Shown piece by piece: positions 604-61,673 of a stretch of 64,000 nt of DNA. Source of the DNA: a virus (Duplodnaviria; Caudoviricetes); IMG/VR virus record IMGVR_UViG_3300042922_001473, one strand, 5' to 3'. Both the position numbers and the translations under genes were made by a program. The notes beneath the pieces were generated by a model. It saw only the letters and a list, made by a program, of their open reading frames with translations. It was not told the origin of the DNA and made no database searches. How positions within the stretch are numbered: the first letter of the stretch is position 1; every line of letters starts with the position of its first letter.

Positions 604-819
604 CTATTGTAATGTAATTATTGGCATATTATCAATGCTATCTACGAACATGTTAGCTTTTTTAAGAAAACTCTCTTTACACTCAATTCTATAAAGTGAA
701 GTGAGTGGTGCAGGATACCTTTTGTAATTTACATTATTGTTATTACAGAGTTCTTCAAAATACTTTTCTTTACCATCTTTAATCCTAACTTTAAATTTAG
801 AATTTTTCATATACAGCAA
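604..819 (-). CDS. hypothetical protein
   Basis: 71-aa ORF, AAGGAGG RBS upstream. Confidence 0.65.
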   Translation of the reverse strand: MLYMKNSKFKVRIKDGKEKYFEELCNNNNVNYKRYPAPLTSLYRIECKESFLKKANMFVDSIDNMPIITLQ

Positions 820-837
820 AATCCTCCTTAATAAATT

Positions 838-1198
838 AGGTGTTCGACATTAATTGTGGTATAATCATCCAGAAAGGAGTTGCTCTTTAATGCTTCTCCT
901 TTTTAATCAGTTTCATATTCATGTAAATTACAAACATTGTTTTTACTTATTCCACTATTATAAAATTCGCTTAATGGGTTTTGACAATTACAATTTTCTG
1001 TGTCTATAACCATATTATTAACCGATATTAATGTTATATTATTACCATTAACTATTCCAGTACCATTCCATACTTTTATATCAATTTTTGATTTGCAACT
1101 ATTACACTTTCTCATTTTCTATCTCCAATAACCACATTTAAATTAAAATCTTATTCTTTATCAAAATCATTCAATACCACAACTAATATCGCTAACTC
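838..1198. mobile_element. ISL3-derived non-autonomous mini-cassette 1 with passenger gene
   Basis: Imperfect terminal IRs (GGTGTTCGACATTAATTGTGGTAT / revcomp GAGTTAGCGATATTAGTTGTGGTAT); flanking direct repeat AATAAATT(A) at 830-838 and 1199-1207; ends homologous to element 3183-3801. Confidence 0.75.
903..1115 (-). CDS. small Cys-rich passenger protein of cassette 1
   Basis: 70 aa with CxxC and CxC; RBS and ATG lie in the conserved cassette end. Confidence 0.6.
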   Translation of the reverse strand: MRKCNSCKSKIDIKVWNGTGIVNGNNITLISVNNMVIDTENCNCQNPLSEFYNSGISKNNVCNLHEYETD

Positions 1199-1261
1199 AA
1201 TAAATTAAAAGCAATCCATACGGTTTATTTCTTAACTATATAGCTTTTAAACAATTAACCA

Positions 1262-1564
1262 TTATTGCTCTTTATTACATTTCTCACAACAAATAGAATT
1301 GTCTTTGATAATGTACTTATCATCTTCTGAAATATAATTACTACATTTACTACACTCAAATATCCAACCATTATCAAGCTGTGCCTGAATTAACTTAGAA
1401 GGTTCATTTTCTAAGTTATCAGCATACTTTGCTCTTTTAATACGAATATCAATATATTTAGTACATTCCATAGCTTCACTTTTATATATAGCATCAATTC
1501 TTCTATCTGCGAATACAATCTCTTGCATATCGCCTTCATTATCTTGAACATGCCATGCTTTCAT
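1262..1564 (-). CDS. phage-type hypothetical protein with C-terminal Zn-ribbon
   Basis: GWIFECSKC...CCEKC; AGGAGG RBS. Confidence 0.7.
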   Translation of the reverse strand: MKAWHVQDNEGDMQEIVFADRRIDAIYKSEAMECTKYIDIRIKRAKYADNLENEPSKLIQAQLDNGWIFECSKCSNYISEDDKYIIKDNSICCEKCNKEQ

Positions 1565-1580
1565 TTAACACCCCTCCTAT

Positions 1581-2348
1581 TTACAGACTTAAAGCTTTAA
1601 GAATTACATTATTCATGTAATCTAATGATATTAATTTATCATCGTCTAACCACTTAACATAACTGTATTCAATATTTTTATGTTCTGACATAAAATCTAA
1701 TAATGCCTTTTTACAAGCCATATGGTCTTCTTTAGAGTAATGTTTATCACTATCTTCTGAAGCAACTTCAAATTTTATATAACATAAAAGTAATTCACCA
1801 AAATCTTTTTCATTCATATACTTATCATCAGCAACCCATTTTTTATTAAATACACCAAAAGTCTTTTCTGTAAGTTCATTTAGTTCAGATTCTTTAGATT
1901 TAAATTCTTCTCTATAATTTTTAAGTGTTTCATTAAATCCTTTAGGTAATAATTCTTTTTTCCCATTTTCATACTTTTTAAATGTATTATTAAAATCGTT
2001 CGAAATGCGTTTAAAATCTCCTAAATTATTAATGCTTATTTCAGTACCATAATAATTTACTACTGAATCGCCAATGTCAGCTTTTTTTAATTTATAATAC
2101 TTTTTAATTTCTTTAAACTTTCCGTCTTTTATTATAAATACATCTTTATTTCCTCTATAATCAAACACACAAAAATTCTCTGGATATTTGTAGTAAAGAG
2201 TTTTTAAAGGAAGTCTATCATTTGTTCCAAAACTAAGAAGACTACCTCCACTATGCACTGTTACAATTTCACCAAAGAAATCTTTATCAAAAATAGGACT
2301 ATAGAATATTTTCACTTGTTCTCCACCAAGATAATCATACATTCCCAT
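1581..2348 (-). CDS. hypothetical protein
   Basis: 255 aa, MGMYD start typical of phage proteins, RBS present. Confidence 0.75.
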   Translation of the reverse strand: MGMYDYLGGEQVKIFYSPIFDKDFFGEIVTVHSGGSLLSFGTNDRLPLKTLYYKYPENFCVFDYRGNKDVFIIKDGKFKEIKKYYKLKKADIGDSVVNYYGTEISINNLGDFKRISNDFNNTFKKYENGKKELLPKGFNETLKNYREEFKSKESELNELTEKTFGVFNKKWVADDKYMNEKDFGELLLCYIKFEVASEDSDKHYSKEDHMACKKALLDFMSEHKNIEYSYVKWLDDDKLISLDYMNNVILKALSL

Positions 2349-2386
2349 TAAACATCACTCCTTTTTGCTTTTTTATACCTTAAGTT

Positions 2387-2635
2387 TCATTTAGTAAAAT
2401 CATATCCAAACGAAATATTGAAAATTTCATTGTTATATAAAATATCTTTTATTAATAATCCTACATTTTTTAAAAAATTTAGATTTTCGAATTGAAGTGT
2501 ATAATTATCATGCCATATATCATATATGTTAGATTCTTCGTTATACACATAACCAAAATTCACTTCTTGATATTTATTTTTTAGCTTAGATATAAATATT
2601 TCTATATATTCTTGTTGCTTTAATTTATCTGGCAT
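2387..2635 (-). CDS. hypothetical protein
   Basis: 82-aa ORF downstream of promoter 2683-2711. Confidence 0.6.
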   Translation of the reverse strand: MPDKLKQQEYIEIFISKLKNKYQEVNFGYVYNEESNIYDIWHDNYTLQFENLNFLKNVGLLIKDILYNNEIFNISFGYDFTK

Positions 2636-2682
2636 TTAATTATCCTTTTAATTATATTTATAATTGTTTATTTCCTTTAATC

Positions 2683-2711
2683 ATTATATCACAATAATAT
2701 AATTTTGTAAA
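2683..2711 (-). promoter_or_regulatory. sigmaA-type promoter TTTACA-N17-TATAAT (extended -10)
   Basis: Minus strand TTTACA aaattatattattgtga TATAAT; same design at 20388, 24600, 52185, 59619, 63218. Confidence 0.75.
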
Positions 2712-2796
2712 TTATTTTTTCTTTTATAGCACAAAAATAACCCCTTATATATAAATAAGAGGCTATTTTGTAAATATGCAAACTAATAAGAAATCA

Positions 2797-3024
2797 TTAA
2801 TTTTCCAATTTATCTTTTTCATTATTTTCAAATTTTATTAATTCATTATGAGTGCAATACCCTGCACAAGCAGGACACATTTGTTTTCTATACATAGCTT
2901 TTTCATATTCATTACATGATTCTAAACCCCACAAATCTATTTTCACTAATACTTTATCAGCAAAAGTGTTAATGGATAACCAACTAAATTCATTATTACA
3001 TTTTTGACATTTCTCTTTAATCAT
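2797..3024 (-). CDS. Cys-rich hypothetical protein
   Basis: CQKC and CPAC motifs; GGGAG RBS. Confidence 0.6.
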   Translation of the reverse strand: MIKEKCQKCNNEFSWLSINTFADKVLVKIDLWGLESCNEYEKAMYRKQMCPACAGYCTHNELIKFENNEKDKLEN

Positions 3025-3272
3025 ACTACTTTGCTCCCTTCAATAAAAATTCTACAATTTATTATACATAAAACATTTTCATATATAACTTTTATTGTAT
3101 TAGAAGCATTATTACTAAGCTAATGTCTCAATTATATTCCCATCTTTATCTTTTACAACTATTGTTGGCAATTATAAGTTTCGGATATTCGACATTACCT
3201 GTGGTTTTCTTCATACCACTTCACCTTTTTTTCATTAATTTGCATTCGACTTTAATTGTGGTATAACCATCC

Positions 3273-3437
3273 TTGAATAATAAAACTACAACTGTTAAAT
3301 CATATTTGCGAACTTTGGCTTTGGACAAGGATGTCTGTACATGCGTTGCAATGGATATTGCAAGTGCTTACGCAAGTGCTGTTAAAGCTATCTTACCTAA
3401 TGCAACAATTGTTATTGATAAGTTTCATGTTATTTAA
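3273..3437 (+). pseudogene. ISL3-family transposase internal fragment
   Basis: Translates to ...VAMDIASAYASAVKAILPNATIVIDKFHVI*, the ISL3 DDE-region signature. Confidence 0.85.
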
Positions 3438-3718
3438 TTAATAGGACTGTTGACAGTGTTCATATTTAAATACGGTTCAGGTAATGTTTGCCATGCTGTT
3501 ACATACCTGTTATAATCTTCTGCTCCATATTTCCAGCCAAATATTTCTGAAAAGAATATTGTTCTTGTCTGAGGTTCATAATCTGCAATTTTAATTGTAC
3601 ATATAAAGCTTCTGTAATTTGGATGTTCTACATCAAACTTTTTACACTCTTCTTCACTTGGCAATCTTTCTTCAACAGGAATCCAACTACCATTTAATTT
3701 TTTTTTAATATCACTCAT
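3434..3718 (-). CDS. DUF551-like phage protein (passenger of cassette 2)
   Basis: WIPVEERLP...VTAWQTLPEPY motifs. Confidence 0.8.
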   Translation of the reverse strand: MSDIKKKLNGSWIPVEERLPSEEECKKFDVEHPNYRSFICTIKIADYEPQTRTIFFSEIFGWKYGAEDYNRYVTAWQTLPEPYLNMNTVNSPIN

Positions 3719-4009
3719 TTTCTACCTCCAATACCACAATTTTAATTTAAATTTTATTATTTATAAAAACCATTCGATACCAAACATAATGTCGCTAACC
3801 CTAAGTTTCCTGCTCAACTATATATTCTCCACTCATAATCTTTTCATAAATATTTTCTAATATTTAAAAATTTACAACCCCAATTCCATCGTAATCATTC
3901 AATTCGCCCAGTGTAACATAATATACCTTTTCACCAGTAAATTTAAGTATTTCTTCTTTAGCTATTTTCTATTAAAATTATAATATATATTTCCCATATC
4001 AATATCCAC

Positions 4010-4771
4010 TTAACTTATTAGCTTTTGATTATAACAATTTTCTAAATCAGTATATGGGATATTGAATTCTATTCTTAAGGAAAACCCATTATAGTCATTC
4101 TTTCTTCCTGAAAATTTATAAATTACTGCATTAGGAAAATCGGACAACAAAAGTTCTTGAAATCTTTTTTTATTATTATCAGTATCTAATAGTTCAGATT
4201 TAAATTGAGCATTATGAATATCCCAACCATCATCTGTCTTTTGTTTTGTTCCATTATTATTTTTAAATACTTTAAAAATTTCTTTATCAGCTAAATGTGC
4301 TTCCTTTTCCATGCTCATATCAGAAGATAAATCTGCAATTATTCCATATGCTGAATAAGATACGGAAGCATAATGCCATCCTTCACTTTCATACCACGCT
4401 CTTAAAATATTTTCATATCTATTTATTGCCCCAGTAACTGCTTCTGGAGAGACTCCTTTTCCAAGCAAATCAATTAATCTTCGTATTTCTATGTTCTTTT
4501 CACGTATTTCAACATGTCTTTTTTCCTTTTCATTTAAAAGAATAGAATCATATCCTACCATTTTTGACAAATCTGAATGAAAGCCCTCATTTAATCCAAG
4601 ATTTGTCCATACATTAGTTTTATTTACAATGTCCCCTTCAACTAAATCTCTAAAAAAGAACATATTTGACAACATTTCATTTATTTTCTTTATAACCTTT
4701 TTCTTATCTTCAAAAGATAATGAAAGAAGCGTATCATCTCTAAATATTTCTAATTTACTCATACTATTCAC
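4010..4771 (-). CDS. hypothetical protein
   Basis: 253-aa ORF; AGGAG RBS; last gene of the hen1 operon. Confidence 0.75.
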   Translation of the reverse strand: MNSMSKLEIFRDDTLLSLSFEDKKKVIKKINEMLSNMFFFRDLVEGDIVNKTNVWTNLGLNEGFHSDLSKMVGYDSILLNEKEKRHVEIREKNIEIRRLIDLLGKGVSPEAVTGAINRYENILRAWYESEGWHYASVSYSAYGIIADLSSDMSMEKEAHLADKEIFKVFKNNNGTKQKTDDGWDIHNAQFKSELLDTDNNKKRFQELLLSDFPNAVIYKFSGRKNDYNGFSLRIEFNIPYTDLENCYNQKLIS

Positions 4772-4920
4772 TCCTAATTCTATAATCTATGGTCAACAAC
4801 TTCATTTGTCATACATAAAATAGCAAGTCATGCCACGTTTAAAACCTTTCGCCATTTGTTAAAGCGTTTTAAAGCCTCTAAGCAATGAAGTAATTCGCTA
4901 TAATGTAATGACTTTTTTGT
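4760..4920. repeat. degenerate direct repeat of pnkp 3' end + RBS + next start (other copy 5614-5780)
   Basis: ctataatctatggtcaacaacttcatttgtcatacataaaatag is identical in both copies; the rest diverges by indels and substitutions. Confidence 0.9.
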
Positions 4921-4929
4921 TTAAAATCA

Positions 4930-5625
4930 TTAATTTGTTCCTTCATTTTCAACACTTGTTTGACAACTAATTAATGTTGCCTGAATAGAGTCTATAACAC
5001 TACAAATCGAATATTTAAGAAGAAAGTATAAATTACTATATTCAGGATATTTGTCTTTTGCTTTTCTGATAAGTGGTAAAATATATTCGTAAGTTTCATC
5101 AATATATGATTGTAATTTCTCATTACTAAATACACCTGCCATTGAAGATACGTTATGACATCTATCAATACATTTTACTATAATTACTCTCTTATCATCT
5201 AACATTGAATTATAGTATCGTTTTTTTGCTTCTTCTTTTGTTTCTCCATCTAAAACTTCAAATGTAAGTTTTTTAACCCCAAGTTTAATATCATCATTAA
5301 CAGGAAAGTCACTTATAGGCGTATTGCAATCCTCTGCCACATCATGAAGCATAATCATTGCAATTATTGAGTCATCTTTTATGCCCATTGATACAGCATA
5401 AGATGCCATAGTTAATGGATGTATAAAATATGGTGTTCCATCTTTTCTTTTTTGGTCTTTATGCTTATCTCTTGCATATGAAAGAGCTTTTAAAGTTTCT
5501 GTCATACCTGCACCCATTGCAAAACCTTTATTATAAGTATAAAGTTTATAAACATCAAATAATTTATTTCCCATATGTTCCAATTCTACTCTTTTTTTAA
5601 TTGCATTTGTTGTCATATTATTCAC
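4930..5625 (-). CDS. SpoT/Mesh1-like HD-domain hydrolase (small alarmone hydrolase-like)
   Basis: RKDGTPYFIHP, LHDVAED and KCIDRCHN motifs. Confidence 0.85.
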   Translation of the reverse strand: MNNMTTNAIKKRVELEHMGNKLFDVYKLYTYNKGFAMGAGMTETLKALSYARDKHKDQKRKDGTPYFIHPLTMASYAVSMGIKDDSIIAMIMLHDVAEDCNTPISDFPVNDDIKLGVKKLTFEVLDGETKEEAKKRYYNSMLDDKRVIIVKCIDRCHNVSSMAGVFSNEKLQSYIDETYEYILPLIRKAKDKYPEYSNLYFLLKYSICSVIDSIQATLISCQTSVENEGTN

Positions 5626-5633
5626 TCCTCACT

Positions 5634-6872
5634 CTATAATCTATGGTCAACAACTTCATTTGTCATACATAAAATAGTAAGTATATACTCATGCCACGTT
5701 TGAAAATCTTCACCATTTGAAAATCGTTTTAAAGCCTCTACGCCAAGAAGCAATTCCCTATAATGTAATGACCTTTTTCTGCTTAAGCTTCTATTTTTTA
5801 ATTTTGCTATTACTGTAGGGTTGTCATAGTTAATTCCATATATAATCCTTAAATAATCCTTACCCCTTACTTTCATCATAGGAAGGATTAATTCACCCTG
5901 GTCATTATGTTCGAGAAAATATTCTGTCTTTAATATAAATCCCTCATACCCTTTAGAAGTTAATTCATCCCAAAATTTTATTGAATTACTTATGCTTTCT
6001 TCTTTGGTAAGGTCTATAAGCACATATGGTGTTTTAATAAATAAGTTATCTTCATTTTCAGCAAACATATTAAAGTGATTTAAGTGCCATTCATGCTCTT
6101 TGTCAAAAAATGTTTTTCCTTCATGTGCTAATAAATGAAAAGGTGCAATTTTTATATTTTCAATATTTGTATCCCAGCAATAGTTCTCTAATTGTTGTTT
6201 ATATTTATTTATGTTTGTAAGATTATTTTCTACTTCTTTAAGCATTTCTTCTTTAATTATAGGAGTATCTTTTAAGTTTTCATATAATTTAGTGTTTAAA
6301 GCTAATGCACTATCAAGTACAGGTAGATATTGATTAAAAAGTAATCCTTCACCTTTAGCATTCCATGGAAGAATTTCAGCGTCTATTATTACAAACCCAG
6401 TATCAAACCTATTAAAATAATCAATACTATTTAAAATAGCTTTAATCCTTAATGATATAGTTTCATTTTCTTTTTCATTGAAGAATTTCTTGCCTGTTCT
6501 TGAATAGATAATTACTTCTTCTTGTTGGTTAGTAAACTCTATTGCTTTTTCTTTATCTTTAAAAACAATAATAGTGCTTCTGCTTCCCATATGTTTTAAT
6601 TCAGCAATTAATCTTTTAGCTCCAAGAGATTTATATTCTTCAATTGCCTCTATAGGATGTTCAAGAAAATCTATATTTTTAGAAGTTCTGCATGGGCTAA
6701 TTGTTGGTGGAATATATGGTAATACATTCGTAGGCATTAACCTAAAACTTATTTCATCAAGTGCTGATTGCACATTTTTAGGGTGTATATTTATTTCTCT
6801 ATTATCAACTGCTATGTTAAACCCATTTATATATTTAGCTATATCAACAGCTTTAAATCTATTATTTAACAT
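5634..6872 (-). CDS. Pnkp-type RNA ligase (adenylyltransferase) domain only
   Basis: PPTISP, motif I ELKHMGSR, DAEILPW, APFHLLA, EGFILK, KVRGKDYLRIIYG and C-terminal VDHRL; no kinase or phosphatase domains. Confidence 0.9.
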   Translation of the reverse strand: MLNNRFKAVDIAKYINGFNIAVDNREINIHPKNVQSALDEISFRLMPTNVLPYIPPTISPCRTSKNIDFLEHPIEAIEEYKSLGAKRLIAELKHMGSRSTIIVFKDKEKAIEFTNQQEEVIIYSRTGKKFFNEKENETISLRIKAILNSIDYFNRFDTGFVIIDAEILPWNAKGEGLLFNQYLPVLDSALALNTKLYENLKDTPIIKEEMLKEVENNLTNINKYKQQLENYCWDTNIENIKIAPFHLLAHEGKTFFDKEHEWHLNHFNMFAENEDNLFIKTPYVLIDLTKEESISNSIKFWDELTSKGYEGFILKTEYFLEHNDQGELILPMMKVRGKDYLRIIYGINYDNPTVIAKLKNRSLSRKRSLHYRELLLGVEALKRFSNGEDFQTWHEYILTILCMTNEVVDHRL

Positions 6873-6898
6873 TATTTATCCTCCAAATACCTGATATT

Positions 6899-8443
6899 TT
6901 ATATATTTAACTTTGTAAATACTGCCATCATAGTCGGTTGTATATCATCAATAACCTTTCCGAAAGAAGAAACCTTATAGTCATATCCATAAGTTTTACT
7001 AATATTTTCACAGAAACTCATGAATTCATTTTTAGTAAATTCAAATCTATGGTCATAATGTCTTAACCTATTAGAACTATTAAAGAATTTGTTAAATTCT
7101 ATATTTGGTGTTGAAATTATTAAGTTCTTTGGTTCAAGATACATTACATTGTCAATAATTCCTGGTATTCTTTCAAGTTCATTATGCTCAATTACTTCAC
7201 AAAGAACTATTGTATCAAATCCCTTTAATCTTGAATCTCTATAATACAGAGAGCTTTGCAATAGTGTTATGTTGTTAAATTTATTACCCCTAAATCTATT
7301 CTTAGCTTTATAGATTATATCAGCATTAGAATCAACACCTGTAATTTCTAAATTTTCATATACTAATTTATCAATCAAATTTCCTTCGCCACAACCAAAA
7401 TCCAGAACTTTTTTGCATTTTGTTTCTAAAATTGCTTCTTTTACCTTAATTAATCTTAAAGTATTTAACTTTAATCCATTTTCTCCATATCCTTTATCTA
7501 CAACTTCTTCTATTTCTATCTCGTTATTAATTTGATTTATTTGTTTATTTTTCTCCTCTATTTCATTTAATAGCTCTGTTGCATAAGTAGAATATGACAA
7601 ATATCTTTGAGTAATTACTTTTCTCATTGAATGAGTATCAAGCCAGCCTTCAGTATATCTTTTAAATTTTTCTAAATCCTGTTTTTCTGGTTTAAAATGC
7701 CTGAAATTATCTATTGCGGTAATAGTTACAATGAGTTCTCTTAATATATCTCTCACCTTTCCTGTTTTCTCTAATTTGATAAAACAAATTTCTTTTCTTC
7801 TTGAAGTAAAAGAAACAGGTTCATTAAATTCTTCTATCGCAACTTTATACCCAAGTTCTTCATACATCTTTATTATATTTTCATTAGTTAGTTTTGGTTT
7901 AAATGGTCCTACTTCTAATTGAATATCATACTCATTTTCATAGATGTCGCCTTCTTTATTCAATGAAGTGTTTAATACATTCATTATTTCTTTTTGAAAT
8001 ACCGAAGTAGCAAGATACTCTTTTTCGTTTACATATCCATTGAAATCTTTAGCAAATGCTAATGTATCTGGTAATGAGTACAAAACTGCCTCAACCTCAG
8101 TTTCAGTATATTTTTTATAAAAGAAAAATGTATCAATTATCTCTCCTACTTTTTTTCTTATTAATTCACCATTTGACGTGATATATTTTACCTGCGTGTT
8201 CTCATTTATTACTTCAAGTTTTTCATTAATAACTCTATCTTTTTTTAATAATTTAATTAAATCCTTTGATAATGTCTTTATATTTAATGAGACCTCTCCA
8301 TTTTTTAATAAGTCTTTTATTTTATAATCTACATCTACAGCTACAGCTCTTTCACTATTCACAAATACTTTGTTAGGATTTTTACCATATACGTAACTTA
8401 ATAAATTCGCATTATTACCCTTTGCGTTTATCTTTAAAAACAT
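6899..8443 (-). CDS. hen1: Hen1 RNA 3'-terminal 2'-O-methyltransferase
   Basis: N-terminal GKNP ligase-activating region; VLDFGCGEG, EVIEH, STPNIEFN, RHYDHRFEFT; adjacent to Pnkp ligase. Confidence 0.9.
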   Translation of the reverse strand: MFLKINAKGNNANLLSYVYGKNPNKVFVNSERAVAVDVDYKIKDLLKNGEVSLNIKTLSKDLIKLLKKDRVINEKLEVINENTQVKYITSNGELIRKKVGEIIDTFFFYKKYTETEVEAVLYSLPDTLAFAKDFNGYVNEKEYLATSVFQKEIMNVLNTSLNKEGDIYENEYDIQLEVGPFKPKLTNENIIKMYEELGYKVAIEEFNEPVSFTSRRKEICFIKLEKTGKVRDILRELIVTITAIDNFRHFKPEKQDLEKFKRYTEGWLDTHSMRKVITQRYLSYSTYATELLNEIEEKNKQINQINNEIEIEEVVDKGYGENGLKLNTLRLIKVKEAILETKCKKVLDFGCGEGNLIDKLVYENLEITGVDSNADIIYKAKNRFRGNKFNNITLLQSSLYYRDSRLKGFDTIVLCEVIEHNELERIPGIIDNVMYLEPKNLIISTPNIEFNKFFNSSNRLRHYDHRFEFTKNEFMSFCENISKTYGYDYKVSSFGKVIDDIQPTMMAVFTKLNI

Positions 8444-37433: not shown

Positions 37434-38699
37434 GTGAATATACATATGCGATTGTCATTTAAATTCAAACCACAACTAAATAGTTTGCAAGCTAACATTA
37501 TTGAAGAGTTAAGTTATCATACTACAAAATTATATAACATAGTTAACTATGATAATTTAACCTATGGTGTAAAATCATATTACAAAATGAATGAAGTATA
37601 TAATTCTAATTGGCATAAGGAATTTCTTCATAGTCATAACTATCAGCATAGTCTAAAGGTTTTAGAGCAAAACTGGAAAAGTTATTTTAAATCAATTACT
37701 GATTTTAAGAAAAGCCTTTCAAAATACAATGGTATGCCAAAACCACCAAAGTATAAAAATTTAAATGATAGGAAAAATGAAATAATATTTACTTCTGCAG
37801 GAATTAGAATTAAAAACAATACTTTAATGCTTTCACTCTCTAAAGCTATGCAATTAAAATATGGTGTAAATAGTCTTAATTTTGAAGTTTCTAATAAACT
37901 TCAAAGCCTATTTAATTGGAATAGCCTTCAACAAGCAAAGATTTGCTGGAACAGTTCATTAAAAGAGTGGAGCATAATTTTAATATATCTAAAAGAAGAA
38001 GTGGTTTTATCAAATGACTTTAATAACATTATGGCAATTGACCTTGGTTTAAGCAACCTTGCAACAATGACATTCTTAAACAATGAAGAAAGCTATATAA
38101 TCAATGGAAAACCACTTAAGTCAGTAAATAGCCATATTGATAAGAAGATTTCACATTTGCAAAGAATATCAATGCACATGGTTGGCAGTAAAAATCATAA
38201 GGATTCTAAAGAAATAACACGTCTTAGAACTTATCGTGAAAATTATATTAATAACTATTTGCATAAAGCAAGTAAAATTATCATTGAATTAGCACTAAAA
38301 CATAAGTGTAGCACTATAGTTATTGGCGATATCCATGGTATTAAACAAAACTTAAACTACAATAAGACATTTGTTCAAATACCAATACTTAAACTAAAAG
38401 AAATGATTAGCTATAAAGCAAAATTACAAGGGATAGAAGTAAAACTTCAAAATGAAGCATATACTTCTGGTTGTAGTGCAATTGATTTAGAATTAATAGC
38501 TAAATCACATTACAATAAAAAAAGAAGAATATGCAGAGGCATATTCCAAAGTAACACAAACATTAAAATTAACTCAGATGTGAATGGTAGTCTTAACATA
38601 TTAAGGCTATATACAAAAGACACATGTATTCCCAAACTAATAACAACAGCAAGGGATAAGGGCTACGTGAATAGCCCAATAAAGCAAAGGGTGGCTTAG
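37434..38699 (+). CDS. tnpB: RNA-guided endonuclease TnpB
   Basis: AIDLG, VIGD, EAYTS, NSDVNGSLNI. Confidence 0.9.
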   Translation: MNIHMRLSFKFKPQLNSLQANIIEELSYHTTKLYNIVNYDNLTYGVKSYYKMNEVYNSNWHKEFLHSHNYQHSLKVLEQNWKSYFKSITDFKKSLSKYNGMPKPPKYKNLNDRKNEIIFTSAGIRIKNNTLMLSLSKAMQLKYGVNSLNFEVSNKLQSLFNWNSLQQAKICWNSSLKEWSIILIYLKEEVVLSNDFNNIMAIDLGLSNLATMTFLNNEESYIINGKPLKSVNSHIDKKISHLQRISMHMVGSKNHKDSKEITRLRTYRENYINNYLHKASKIIIELALKHKCSTIVIGDIHGIKQNLNYNKTFVQIPILKLKEMISYKAKLQGIEVKLQNEAYTSGCSAIDLELIAKSHYNKKRRICRGIFQSNTNIKINSDVNGSLNILRLYTKDTCIPKLITTARDKGYVNSPIKQRVA

Positions 38700-60155: not shown

Positions 60156-61673
60156 TTGAAATATATGCCTAAATCAAATACTAAATCTTTTATACTGGAA
60201 TTAAAATTAAATGCTGAAATATTTCAAATTCAAATTTTAAACAAAAGATTTGAGATTGCTCGCAAAATGTATAATTCAACTCTTTCGTATGCTTTAAAGC
60301 AACTAAAATTGATGCAAGAAAATAAAGAATATAAAGACGCTTTAAACAACTACATTGAAGCTAAGAAAAATAATGATAAATACAATATTAAGCTTCATTT
60401 GGAAACTTTAAATAATATTAGACTTTCATTTTGTTTATCTGATTATCATTTGCAGGAATATATAATTAAATCAAAAAGAAATTATGAAAGCCATATAGAT
60501 ATAAATACCTCCCAGAAAATTGCTTCTACAGTTTGGAAAGCAACTTCAGATGTTCTGTTTAAGAAAGGCAACAAAGTTCACTTTAAAAAATTTGGAGAGT
60601 TATTATCCATAGAAGGCAAATCAAATAAACAAGGTATTCGATTTAAAGATAATTTTCTAATGTGGAATGGTCTTAAAATTTCAGTTAAAATAAGAAACAA
60701 TGATATATTTGCTAAAGAAAGTCTTGAAAACCACAATATTAAATATTGCAGAATAATTAAAAAAATAATAGGTAACAAAGAAACCTTTTATTTGCAACTA
60801 ATATTGGAAGGAGTGCCTCCTGAAAAGAAAGTTAATTCTACTGGTGAATTAAGACATAAACTTTCAGAAAACAAAAGAGTTGGTATTGATTTAGGTACTT
60901 CCACAATTGCAATAGTTTCACAAGATATTGCGGAGTTAAAAGAACTTGCTCCAAATATAATGAAATATGAAAAAGAAATAAATATGTTATTAAGATATCT
61001 TGGCAGAAGCAAAAGGGCTACAAATCCATTTAACTATAATAAAGATGGTACTATAAAAAGAGATATTAAGCTAAAGTGGATAAGAAGTAAAAAATATATA
61101 AAAGCTTTGTTTAAATTAAAAAACCTATATAGACTGAAATCGCAATATATAAACAAAACTCATAATAAATTATGTAATTTTATTTTAAAATTGGGTGATG
61201 AAATTTATACAGAAGAAATGAATTTTAGAGCTTTAGCAAAACGTTCCAAGAAAACTGAAATTTCAGTTAAAACAGGTAATTTAAAAAAGAAAAAGCGTTT
61301 TGGCAAAAGTATATTAAATAAAGCCCCAAGCAAAGTATTAACAATATTAAATAGAAAACTAAACTATCAAGATAAAGAACTTATAAAAGTAAATACCAGA
61401 AAATATAGAGCAAGTCAATATAATCATGTAACAGATACCTATAAAAAGAAAAAATTAAGCCAACGATGGAATTATATAGATAATTGTAAAATTCAAAGAG
61501 ATTTGTATTCTGCGTTTTTACTAATGTGTGCAAAAGATAAAACAAAACCAGATAAGGCACTTTGCAATAAAGAATTTCATGAATTTAAAAAGAATCACAA
61601 TGAGTGTATAGAAAAAATTAAGTACAGTGATAATAAATTAATAAACAGTTTTGGAATAAAGAAAATAGCATAA
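60156..61673 (+). CDS. tnpB: large TnpB-family RNA-guided nuclease
   Basis: RuvC triad VGIDLG, IYTEEM, IQRDLYSAF. Confidence 0.85.
   Translation: MKYMPKSNTKSFILELKLNAEIFQIQILNKRFEIARKMYNSTLSYALKQLKLMQENKEYKDALNNYIEAKKNNDKYNIKLHLETLNNIRLSFCLSDYHLQEYIIKSKRNYESHIDINTSQKIASTVWKATSDVLFKKGNKVHFKKFGELLSIEGKSNKQGIRFKDNFLMWNGLKISVKIRNNDIFAKESLENHNIKYCRIIKKIIGNKETFYLQLILEGVPPEKKVNSTGELRHKLSENKRVGIDLGTSTIAIVSQDIAELKELAPNIMKYEKEINMLLRYLGRSKRATNPFNYNKDGTIKRDIKLKWIRSKKYIKALFKLKNLYRLKSQYINKTHNKLCNFILKLGDEIYTEEMNFRALAKRSKKTEISVKTGNLKKKKRFGKSILNKAPSKVLTILNRKLNYQDKELIKVNTRKYRASQYNHVTDTYKKKKLSQRWNYIDNCKIQRDLYSAFLLMCAKDKTKPDKALCNKEFHEFKKNHNECIEKIKYSDNKLINSFGIKKIA

Follow-up and report, generated by a model that had tools for sequence, protein, structure and literature searches.

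Two Small Cargo-Bearing Elements in a Viral Contig as Probable Derivatives of a Passenger-Carrying ISL3 Clade

The 64,000-nucleotide stretch of viral DNA (Duplodnaviria; Caudoviricetes) recorded in IMG/VR as IMGVR_UViG_3300042922_001473, here called the window, holds two small elements, Element 1 (positions 839-1198) and Element 2 (3183-3801), each of which encloses one small cargo gene between related, imperfect terminal inverted repeats (IRs) and is flanked by its own target-site duplication. Both are very probably non-autonomous derivatives of one clade of passenger-carrying insertion sequences (ISs) of the ISL3 family whose members are found for the most part in Clostridia phage and prophage DNA. 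Homology to this clade, the common layout, the duplications, and the swapping of cargo between close relatives are all directly observed. The local DNA has a guanine-plus-cytosine (GC) content of 26% and is dense with small genes on the minus strand.

Element 1 measures 360 bp and retains both of its ends and an undamaged duplication, along with a full cargo open reading frame (ORF) and a terminator. It lies between identical copies of AATAAATTA (830-838 and 1199-1207); 8 bp are expected for ISL3, and the ninth base may be a chance match. Element 2 lies between two copies of TAAGTTTC (3175-3182 and 3802-3809). A sequence-only reading of this DNA had described two elements with related imperfect terminal IRs and separate duplications, and all of these were located as described, except that the left bound of Element 1, given as 838, is off by one nucleotide (839), its right bound at 1198 being correct. 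The terminal IRs read GGTGTTCGAC.. and GAGTTAGCGA.. in Element 1 and GGATATTCGAC.. and GGGTTAGCGAC.. in Element 2, where 17 of 25 positions match. The left-end word TTCGACATTAATTGTGGTAT, counted with up to three mismatches, occurs three times in the 64 kb (843, 3188, and 3245) as compared to 0.03 expected occurrences, and the right-end motif twice (1174-1196 and 3777-3799, minus strand) as compared to 0.00. Within the window, profiles of the family ends match only the ends of these two elements (E 1e-22 to 4e-5), namely the left and right ends of Element 1 with E 3.6e-5 and 4e-11 and those of Element 2 with E 1.4e-22 and 1.5e-12. Chance similarity was rejected in view of the counts in shuffled sequence, the target duplications, and a full-length relative (described below). 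The two right ends (1111-1196 and 3714-3799) are 81-84% identical over 86-87 nt, and this similarity spans the ribosome-binding site (RBS; CTCC or CCTCC), the start codon (CAT on the strand shown), and two further nucleotides, and then ends. The ~85-nt right end proposed to be common to both elements, through GGAG(A/G)TAGAAAATGAG, is thus borne out by the alignment, as is the unrelatedness of the two cargos, a 94-aa DUF551 ORF in Element 2 and a 70-aa ORF without family in Element 1.

In IMG/VR, a scan with either end motif led to one and the same viral contig, L001, in which an intact element with these ends extends from GGGTATTCGACTTTACCTGTGG (6792) to the reverse complement of GGGTTAGCGACATTAGGTGTGG (9271) and so supports the suspected ISL3 origin. 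It contains, in this order, a doubled left end, a gene for a 479-aa ISL3 transposase, the hairpin GGAGTTGCTCTTTTGGGCTTCTCC, a passenger gene in convergent orientation, and the right end; the protein cluster of this transposase carries PF01610 and PF13542. The passenger, antisense to the transposase, encodes a 274-aa PAPS-reductase-like protein; the right end has the same terminal IR and subterminal TTGTGGTAT as the window elements, and the hairpin is also found in Element 1.

Element 2 retains the full doubled left end of this layout (3183-3272, plus strand), with the outer IR GGATATTCGACATTACCTGTGGTTT at 3183-3207 and the inner repeat TTCGACTTTAATTGTGGTATAACCATCC at 3245-3272, and is here 94% identical to the left end of L001. 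Two internal deletions have left 54 transposase codons. The internal remnant of the transposase gene (3273-3475, plus strand) corresponds to approximately residues 187-252 of 479 and contains an in-frame stop codon (3435-3437); the part up to and including it (3273-3437) matches positions 35-87 of Pfam DDE_Tnp_ISL3 (PF01610; E 1.3e-12), in line with the 54-codon ISL3 fragment noticed in the sequence-only reading. Compared to the L001 transposase, the remnant is 79% identical to residues 187-241 (tblastn) and 85% identical over 190 nt (blastn). The cargo (3434-3718, minus strand) encodes a 94-aa DUF551 protein (E 2e-4, exceeding the gathering score; phrog_15198, E 5e-13). Eight aligned homologues end in ..LPEPYKEV, whereas its last 11 residues (..NMNTVNSPIN) equal antisense transposase remnant; since transposase-derived DNA reaches ~3475, these residues read antisense transposase and the native 3' end of the gene has been lost. 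Because of the two internal deletions and the fusion of the cargo 3' end to antisense transposase, Element 2 has probably decayed at its present site rather than arriving there as a mini-element. Its right end (3719-3801, minus strand) comprises the RBS CCTCC (3725-3729), the subterminal repeat AATACCACAATT (3730-3741), promoter-like boxes (TTTATA-17-TAAAAT, 3767-3739), and the terminal IR (3777-3801).

The DNA of the window is 100% identical in a contig of a metagenome-assembled genome (MAG) at NCBI and in the Logan contig SRR35185192_33790. The latter, an independent assembly of the same DNA, stops at 3537 inside the DUF551 cargo, and P0128, an 85-aa paralogue that is 83% identical to this cargo, is recorded on a 534.7-kb contig that carries the same genes as the window; given this paralogue, the assembly break may be a repeat-induced stop. 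No empty-site allele, which would show a single AATAAATT or a single TAAGTTTC, was seen; the Logan contig, ending inside Element 2, is uninformative on the presence or absence of the element.

In the left end of Element 1 (839-870, plus strand), the terminal GG runs straight into the inner repeat TTCGACATTAATTGTGGTATAATCATCC, and the extended -10 box of the transposase gene, TGTGGTATAAT (855-865), is included. This end is 96% identical to 6853-6880 of L001 and corresponds, with a match of 28 nt at 93%, to Element 2's terminal GG and inner repeat joined together, which is the fusion that had been suspected from the sequence. Directly behind it (871-904; compared with L001 6880-6890 and 8328-8353), a remnant of the transposase RBS (AAAGGAG) is joined to the terminator hairpin of the backbone, GGAGTTGC..GCTTCTCC followed by a T-run (fold of -14.5 kcal/mol, z -3.8, plus strand). 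At this junction, where ..TATAATCATCCAGAAAGGAG continues as TTGCTCTTTAATGCTTCTCC.., the RBS meets the hairpin at a common AGGAG; the entire transposase ORF is missing by a deletion at this 5-nt microhomology, the outer and inner left repeats are merged into a single one, and no transposase sequence remains. The cargo (903-1115, minus strand) encodes a 70-aa Cys-containing protein (CxxC...CxC) without a Pfam or PHROG family. In its homologues P0122 (64% identity) and P0123 (52%), five Cys residues are invariant and the CxxC...CxC pattern is conserved. A protein-atlas search with the 70-aa protein gave sub-threshold leads only, to small viral hypothetical proteins, and exact look-ups for P0122 and for the DUF551 paralogue P0128 found no contig. 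The right end (1116-1198, minus strand) carries the RBS CTCC (1123-1126), the subterminal repeat (1127-1136), promoter-like boxes (TTGATA-17-TTAAAT), and the terminal IR (1174-1198).

At E<1e-20, 605 homologues of the L001 transposase were found. An alignment of 25 homologues was used to fetch loci from species genomes, viral contigs, and metagenomes, in addition to exact look-ups, and ~20 related elements with the same layout were found in phage contigs and Clostridia MAGs, i.e., the further copies with other cargo that had been anticipated. In nearly all close relatives, sharing at least 43% identity, the transposase stop codon is directly followed by a convergent ORF. The full-length elements measure ~2.2-3.2 kb (ends delimited by motif search) and encode DDE transposases of 475-490 aa. 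Their doubled left end has an outer IR and an inner repeat that both end in TGTGG, the inner one overlapping the -10 box of the transposase gene; the right end of ~75 nt comprises the terminal IR, promoter-like boxes, and the subterminal TTGTGGTAT repeat. Each element holds one convergent passenger gene, and a short terminator hairpin is common to transposase and passenger. The family consensus of the left end is GGGTAT..G....T....TGTGGTTTT, ~35 nt, CAT.CGRATTTA..TGTGGTATAAT, and the transposase RBS, and that of the right end is GGGT..G.GR.ATTAG.TGTGGTATTG, ~35 nt with a TAtAaA-like box, and AAATTGTGGTATT.

The cargo of these elements is diverse and includes, for example, PAPS-reductase-like genes (PF01507/phrog_424; L001, L083, L098, and L199), C5 DNA methylases (PF00145; L010 and L203), phrog_757 DNA methyltransferases (L004, L005, L084, L101, L109, L111, and L112), DUF5131 genes (PF07505; L088 and L132), and a gene for a radical-SAM protein (phrog_9298; L085), as well as, in a Lachnospiraceae sub-clade, methyltransferase-like proteins, HAD hydrolases, and small proteins of unknown kind. 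Exact 8-bp duplications flank seven elements in all (L006, L010, L101, L102, L203, and both window elements), and that of L083 matches at 7/8 positions; in L006, L010, L083, L101, L102, and L203 the duplication encloses transposase and cargo together, placing the passenger inside the IRs. In 13 of 13 judged cases, the cargo shares the direction of the flanking phage genes, to which the transposase runs opposite. Relatives of cargo genes, a likely source of cargo, are also found among ordinary phage genes that lie outside any IS: a gene 1.6 kb beyond the IS of L010 (8183-8986) encodes a product 54% identical to the L001 cargo, P0123 sits in the phage contig L196 without ISL3 ends, and in L197 a DUF551 gene lies between a methyltransferase gene and a DUF5131 gene. 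In L196 (2900-3215), P0123 lies between two direct copies of TTAGTCCGTTGTTTG (2977-2991 and 3195-3210), and a related sequence, CCGTTGTAAA, occurs ~70 nt upstream; this arrangement may represent another repeat-bounded cassette or a regulatory repeat. As a separate feature of the Lachnospiraceae sub-clade, a conserved ORF of ~84-100 aa overlaps the transposase 3' end on the opposite strand (L006 5415-5720, L099 4060-4314, L100 4915-5163, L102 3547-3807, L110 958-1233, and L121 1136-1390) and is followed by further variable cargo; its product (..SEKEY.LSQ..MTEDDY..WQKL...MT..ARMMGL..) has no Pfam family.

An all-against-all blastn comparison of 13 elements limits their homology to the left end plus transposase (~1300-1570 nt) and the last 67-87 nt, extending on the right to 143 nt in L004/L083. 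The most recent swap is seen between L001 (6792-9271) and L199 (2402-5021), which are 95.8% identical over 1565 nt and 92% identical over the last 77 nt, with unrelated DNA in between. Both cargos belong to the PAPS-reductase superfamily and share only ~33% identity, in short stretches. As backbones that are 96% identical bear unrelated cargo DNA, the cargo has been swapped, in agreement with the interchangeability put forward in the sequence-only reading. Here, the backbone homology stops exactly at the cargo stop codon past the hairpin and, on the other side, just past TTGTGGTATTTGA. In the transposase tree, the sister pairs L098/L101 and L004/L010 bear different cargo classes.

The junctions between elements that differ in cargo, with positions counted from the right terminus, are more varied than an exchange at the start codon would imply. 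With Elements 1 and 2 denoted w1 and w2, homology ends at +73 to +77 in L083/L088, L010/L083, L004/L010, L001/w1, L001/w2, and L001/L199; these breakpoints directly follow the subterminal TTGTGGTAT(T) repeat, and the RBS and spacer are those of the respective cargo. Homology runs through ATGAG to +87 (+84 to +88) in w1/w2 and through ATGGAA to ~+137 (+134 to +139) in L004/L083, both of whose start codons lie at +134. The idea that cargo is exchanged at the start codon thus applies to these two pairs only, out of about seven, and the idea that the conserved end supplies RBS and ATG holds for both window copies but not for pairs whose cargos bring their own RBS. Junctions at random positions, which had been named as evidence to the contrary, were not found either: the 5' junctions are confined to a short stretch of the 5'-untranslated region (UTR) bounded by the subterminal repeat and the start codon and are neither a single site nor random. 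On the 3' side of the cargo, backbone homology ends 0-20 nt from the stop codon, beside the terminator hairpin that belongs to the backbone. As a marker of such cassettes, the combination of RBS and ATG, TATTGGAGRTAGAAAATG, was rejected: it matched 16 viral contigs, none of which has an IS end upstream, and thus reflects a common RBS context. Further downstream of the subterminal repeat, L004 (2328-2400), L083 (6442-6515), and L005 share a ~60-nt leader in front of different cargo, with an RBS and a short upstream ORF starting with TTG as well as a palindrome with a compensatory change (AAACAGTCTGTTT vs. AAACACGTGTTT).

If both window elements descend from this clade, as is very probable, the clade transposase would move the whole unit and thereby create the 8-bp duplications. 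Element 1 would be a full unit minus the transposase ORF, cut out between the AAAGGAG of the RBS and the AGGAG of the terminator stem, with collapsed left repeats, and Element 2 a unit that kept both left repeats and underwent two internal deletions, by which the end of its DUF551 cargo was clipped. The right end presumably drives transcription of the cargo, and the TGTGG repeats are putative binding sites of the transposase. Cargo may be replaced by illegitimate or microhomology-mediated recombination beside the hairpin and in the 5' UTR, a type of recombination exemplified by the transposase deletion of Element 1 at the 5-nt AGGAG.

Several observations weigh against a derivation of both elements from this clade. 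Neither a cognate intact transposase nor further ends were found in the window plus 5 kb upstream (69 kb), and no second site of either mini-element emerged from the window or from the public collections searched. The ends of the nearest full-length relative are only ~84-94% identical, which makes L001 a cousin rather than the parent. L001, L199, L004, and L008 are without matching duplications; these elements might have formed by recombination between two insertion sites, and since at least one of L001 and L199 is a recent recombinant, such a capture of cargo would fit the lack of matching duplications in this pair. Finally, the promoter call is a resemblance to the consensus only; a scan of the region for sigma-70 and terminator consensus, which is non-discriminating at 26% GC, gave 22 promoter-like hits as compared to 25.6 expected in shuffles and called no terminators.

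The same absences bear on a possible, if tentative, alternative, namely that both units, or at least Element 1, are true mobile insertion cassettes (MICs) that arrived without a transposase and were moved in trans by a cognate ISL3 transposase elsewhere in the replicon or host, as the sequence-only reading had proposed. The clean organization of the 360-bp Element 1 would agree with this, and related elements with different cargo only 2 kb apart in one genome fit a period of activity. However, there is no second copy of either unit and no transposase within the 69 kb, Element 2 shows the decay of an abandoned insertion in its stop-containing transposase remnant and its clipped cargo, and the duplication would be just as intact had a full-length copy inserted and its transposase been lost afterwards at the site. 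Mobilization in trans is a tentative possibility, more so for the clean Element 1 than for Element 2.

A more far-reaching and rather speculative proposal is that the ISL3 clade serves as a natural expression vector for phage accessory genes. The backbone would provide a promoter, sometimes also 5' UTR, RBS, and ATG, and a shared bidirectional terminator, and the cargo would be replaced at two preferred breakpoints (the hairpin and the subterminal putative binding repeat) via a process linked to replication or transposition, for example, template switching. It would thus form an integron-like platform that spreads DNA-modification and anti-restriction genes, with the window cassettes as its stripped-down, trans-mobilizable form. 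Another reading, which we consider improbable, invokes a dedicated, ORF-precise exchange, in which the backbone supplies everything from promoter to ATG and ORFs are swapped exactly at start and stop codons. Two independent pairs with different cargo (w1/w2 and L004/L083) have homology that runs through the start codon and then ends, and the proximity of the backbone homology to the cargo stop codon, directly after the hairpin, agrees with this on the other side. Yet the L001/L199 swap and the other pairs break at +73 to +77, with an RBS and spacer particular to each cargo, the DDE transposase is the only recombinase encoded and attC-like sites are absent, and alignments that reach the start codon are partly forced because every gene needs an ATG and an RBS. 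That the ~85-nt promoter-like sequence, which precedes two small, mutually unrelated genes within a phage-like array of genes, is a repeated regulatory cassette (a promoter/RBS module comparable to T4-type early-promoter stem-loop cassettes) spread by recombination and not by transposition is hardly credible and already contradicted, as both units are bounded by IRs and exact target duplications, one holds an ISL3 transposase remnant, and the same ends bound an intact ISL3.

Within known classes of mobile DNA, the window elements have the DDE_Tnp_ISL3 remnant (Element 2), the relationship to L001, the imperfect IRs starting with GG, and the 8-bp duplication of ISL3. No intact transposase is present in either element or in the window plus 5 kb, and they are therefore ISL3 derivatives and not functional ISs. 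MICs are transposase-less passenger cassettes bounded by IS ends with a duplication, first described for IS231 (MIC231, Bacillus cereus) and reported to be modular (PMC3913671); they are counted among IS derivatives, 'transporter ISs' being ISs with passenger genes (PMC3129680). By structure (IS-type IRs around a passenger, no transposase, a duplication), Element 1 is a full MIC and Element 2 one except for its dead transposase remnant, and the parent clade, with its passenger inside the IRs together with the transposase, has the structure of a transporter IS. A complete ORF that has homologues elsewhere is present in each of the two, in disagreement with the definition of MITEs (miniature transposable elements with inverted repeats), which are short and non-coding and consist of IS ends alone. 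MIC231 is similarly described as modular, with different passengers within IS-type IRs, without a transposase and with a target duplication. It belongs, however, to the IS4 family and was shown to be moved in trans by the IS231A transposase, whereas the parent of the window cassettes is ISL3; moreover, the latter lie in phage-like DNA, with the cargo in a defined antisense slot behind a promoter-bearing end.

Within ISL3, ISPpu12a (3372 bp) carries a CzcD module (PMC4447125). As in the present clade, an ISL3 transposase and genes unrelated to transposition are held within one pair of IRs. ISPpu12-type elements are, in contrast, proteobacterial elements of plasmids and chromosomes with a fixed passenger set (a regulator, lspA-like, and efflux genes), whereas the present clade occurs in Clostridia phages and MAGs and has a single convergent slot with a content that varies between close relatives; the transposases are presumably only distantly related. 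Cultured phages likewise have ISL3 transposases in their genomes (Bacillus phage BSP9, Clostridioides phage phiCD211, and Burkholderia phage Bcep22), but these are at most 37.5% identical to those of the present clade, and in BSP9 and phiCD211 the neighboring genes are arranged differently. The likeness to integron cassettes, i.e., promoterless or nearly ORF-only interchangeable units behind a platform promoter, extends to function only, as an analogy. The elements neither contain nor adjoin an integrase gene, the 3' ends of cargo abut the backbone hairpin and not a cargo-specific attC, and the present elements, unlike integrons, are without tyrosine integrase, attI, or attC, carry one cassette each, and move as a whole unit by DDE transposition. 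A blastn search with 800-3850 found nothing among cultured phages and, among plasmids, only an unrelated hypothetical gene and weak ISL3 matches, and no description of phage ISL3 elements with passenger genes was found in the literature. A clade resident in Clostridia phages, with a single convergent slot behind a promoter-bearing end and recurrent replacement by phage DNA-modification genes, thus appears undescribed.

Elsewhere in the window, a 401-aa protein encoded in the minus-strand region 26308-29527 matches phrog_1211 (PurZ-type adenylosuccinate-synthetase-like, E 2e-67) and adjoins a phrog_2971 protein and a kinase-like protein; these genes may form a module for 2-aminoadenine (Z-base) DNA. 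A direct duplication of ~160-180 nt (4759-4939 and 5613-5799; 78-94% identity, repeat families D2, D3, and D6) brackets the HD-domain gene of a Hen1 / Pnkp-ligase / HD operon (4930-8443). In addition, TnpB (OrfB_IS605 and a Cas12f1-like TNB) is encoded at 37434-38699 and a 505-aa phrog_506 transposase at 60156-61673, both on the plus strand.

Phage accessory genes such as methyltransferases and genes for PAPS-reductase-like, DUF5131, and DUF551 proteins are mosaic between phages, and the vehicles that move single phage genes are, to our knowledge, poorly known. The ISL3 clade described here is a concrete vehicle of this kind, carrying one accessory gene in a fixed, predicted-to-be-expressed slot and inserting between phage genes along the direction of phage transcription. 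The window would represent an end state, in which the transposase is gone and the gene is retained as a fixed cassette. Should the breakpoints prove to be preferred by mechanism, single genes would be exchanged among phages by a new route, and the TGTGG-containing ends would provide a simple signature for recently acquired counter-defence genes.

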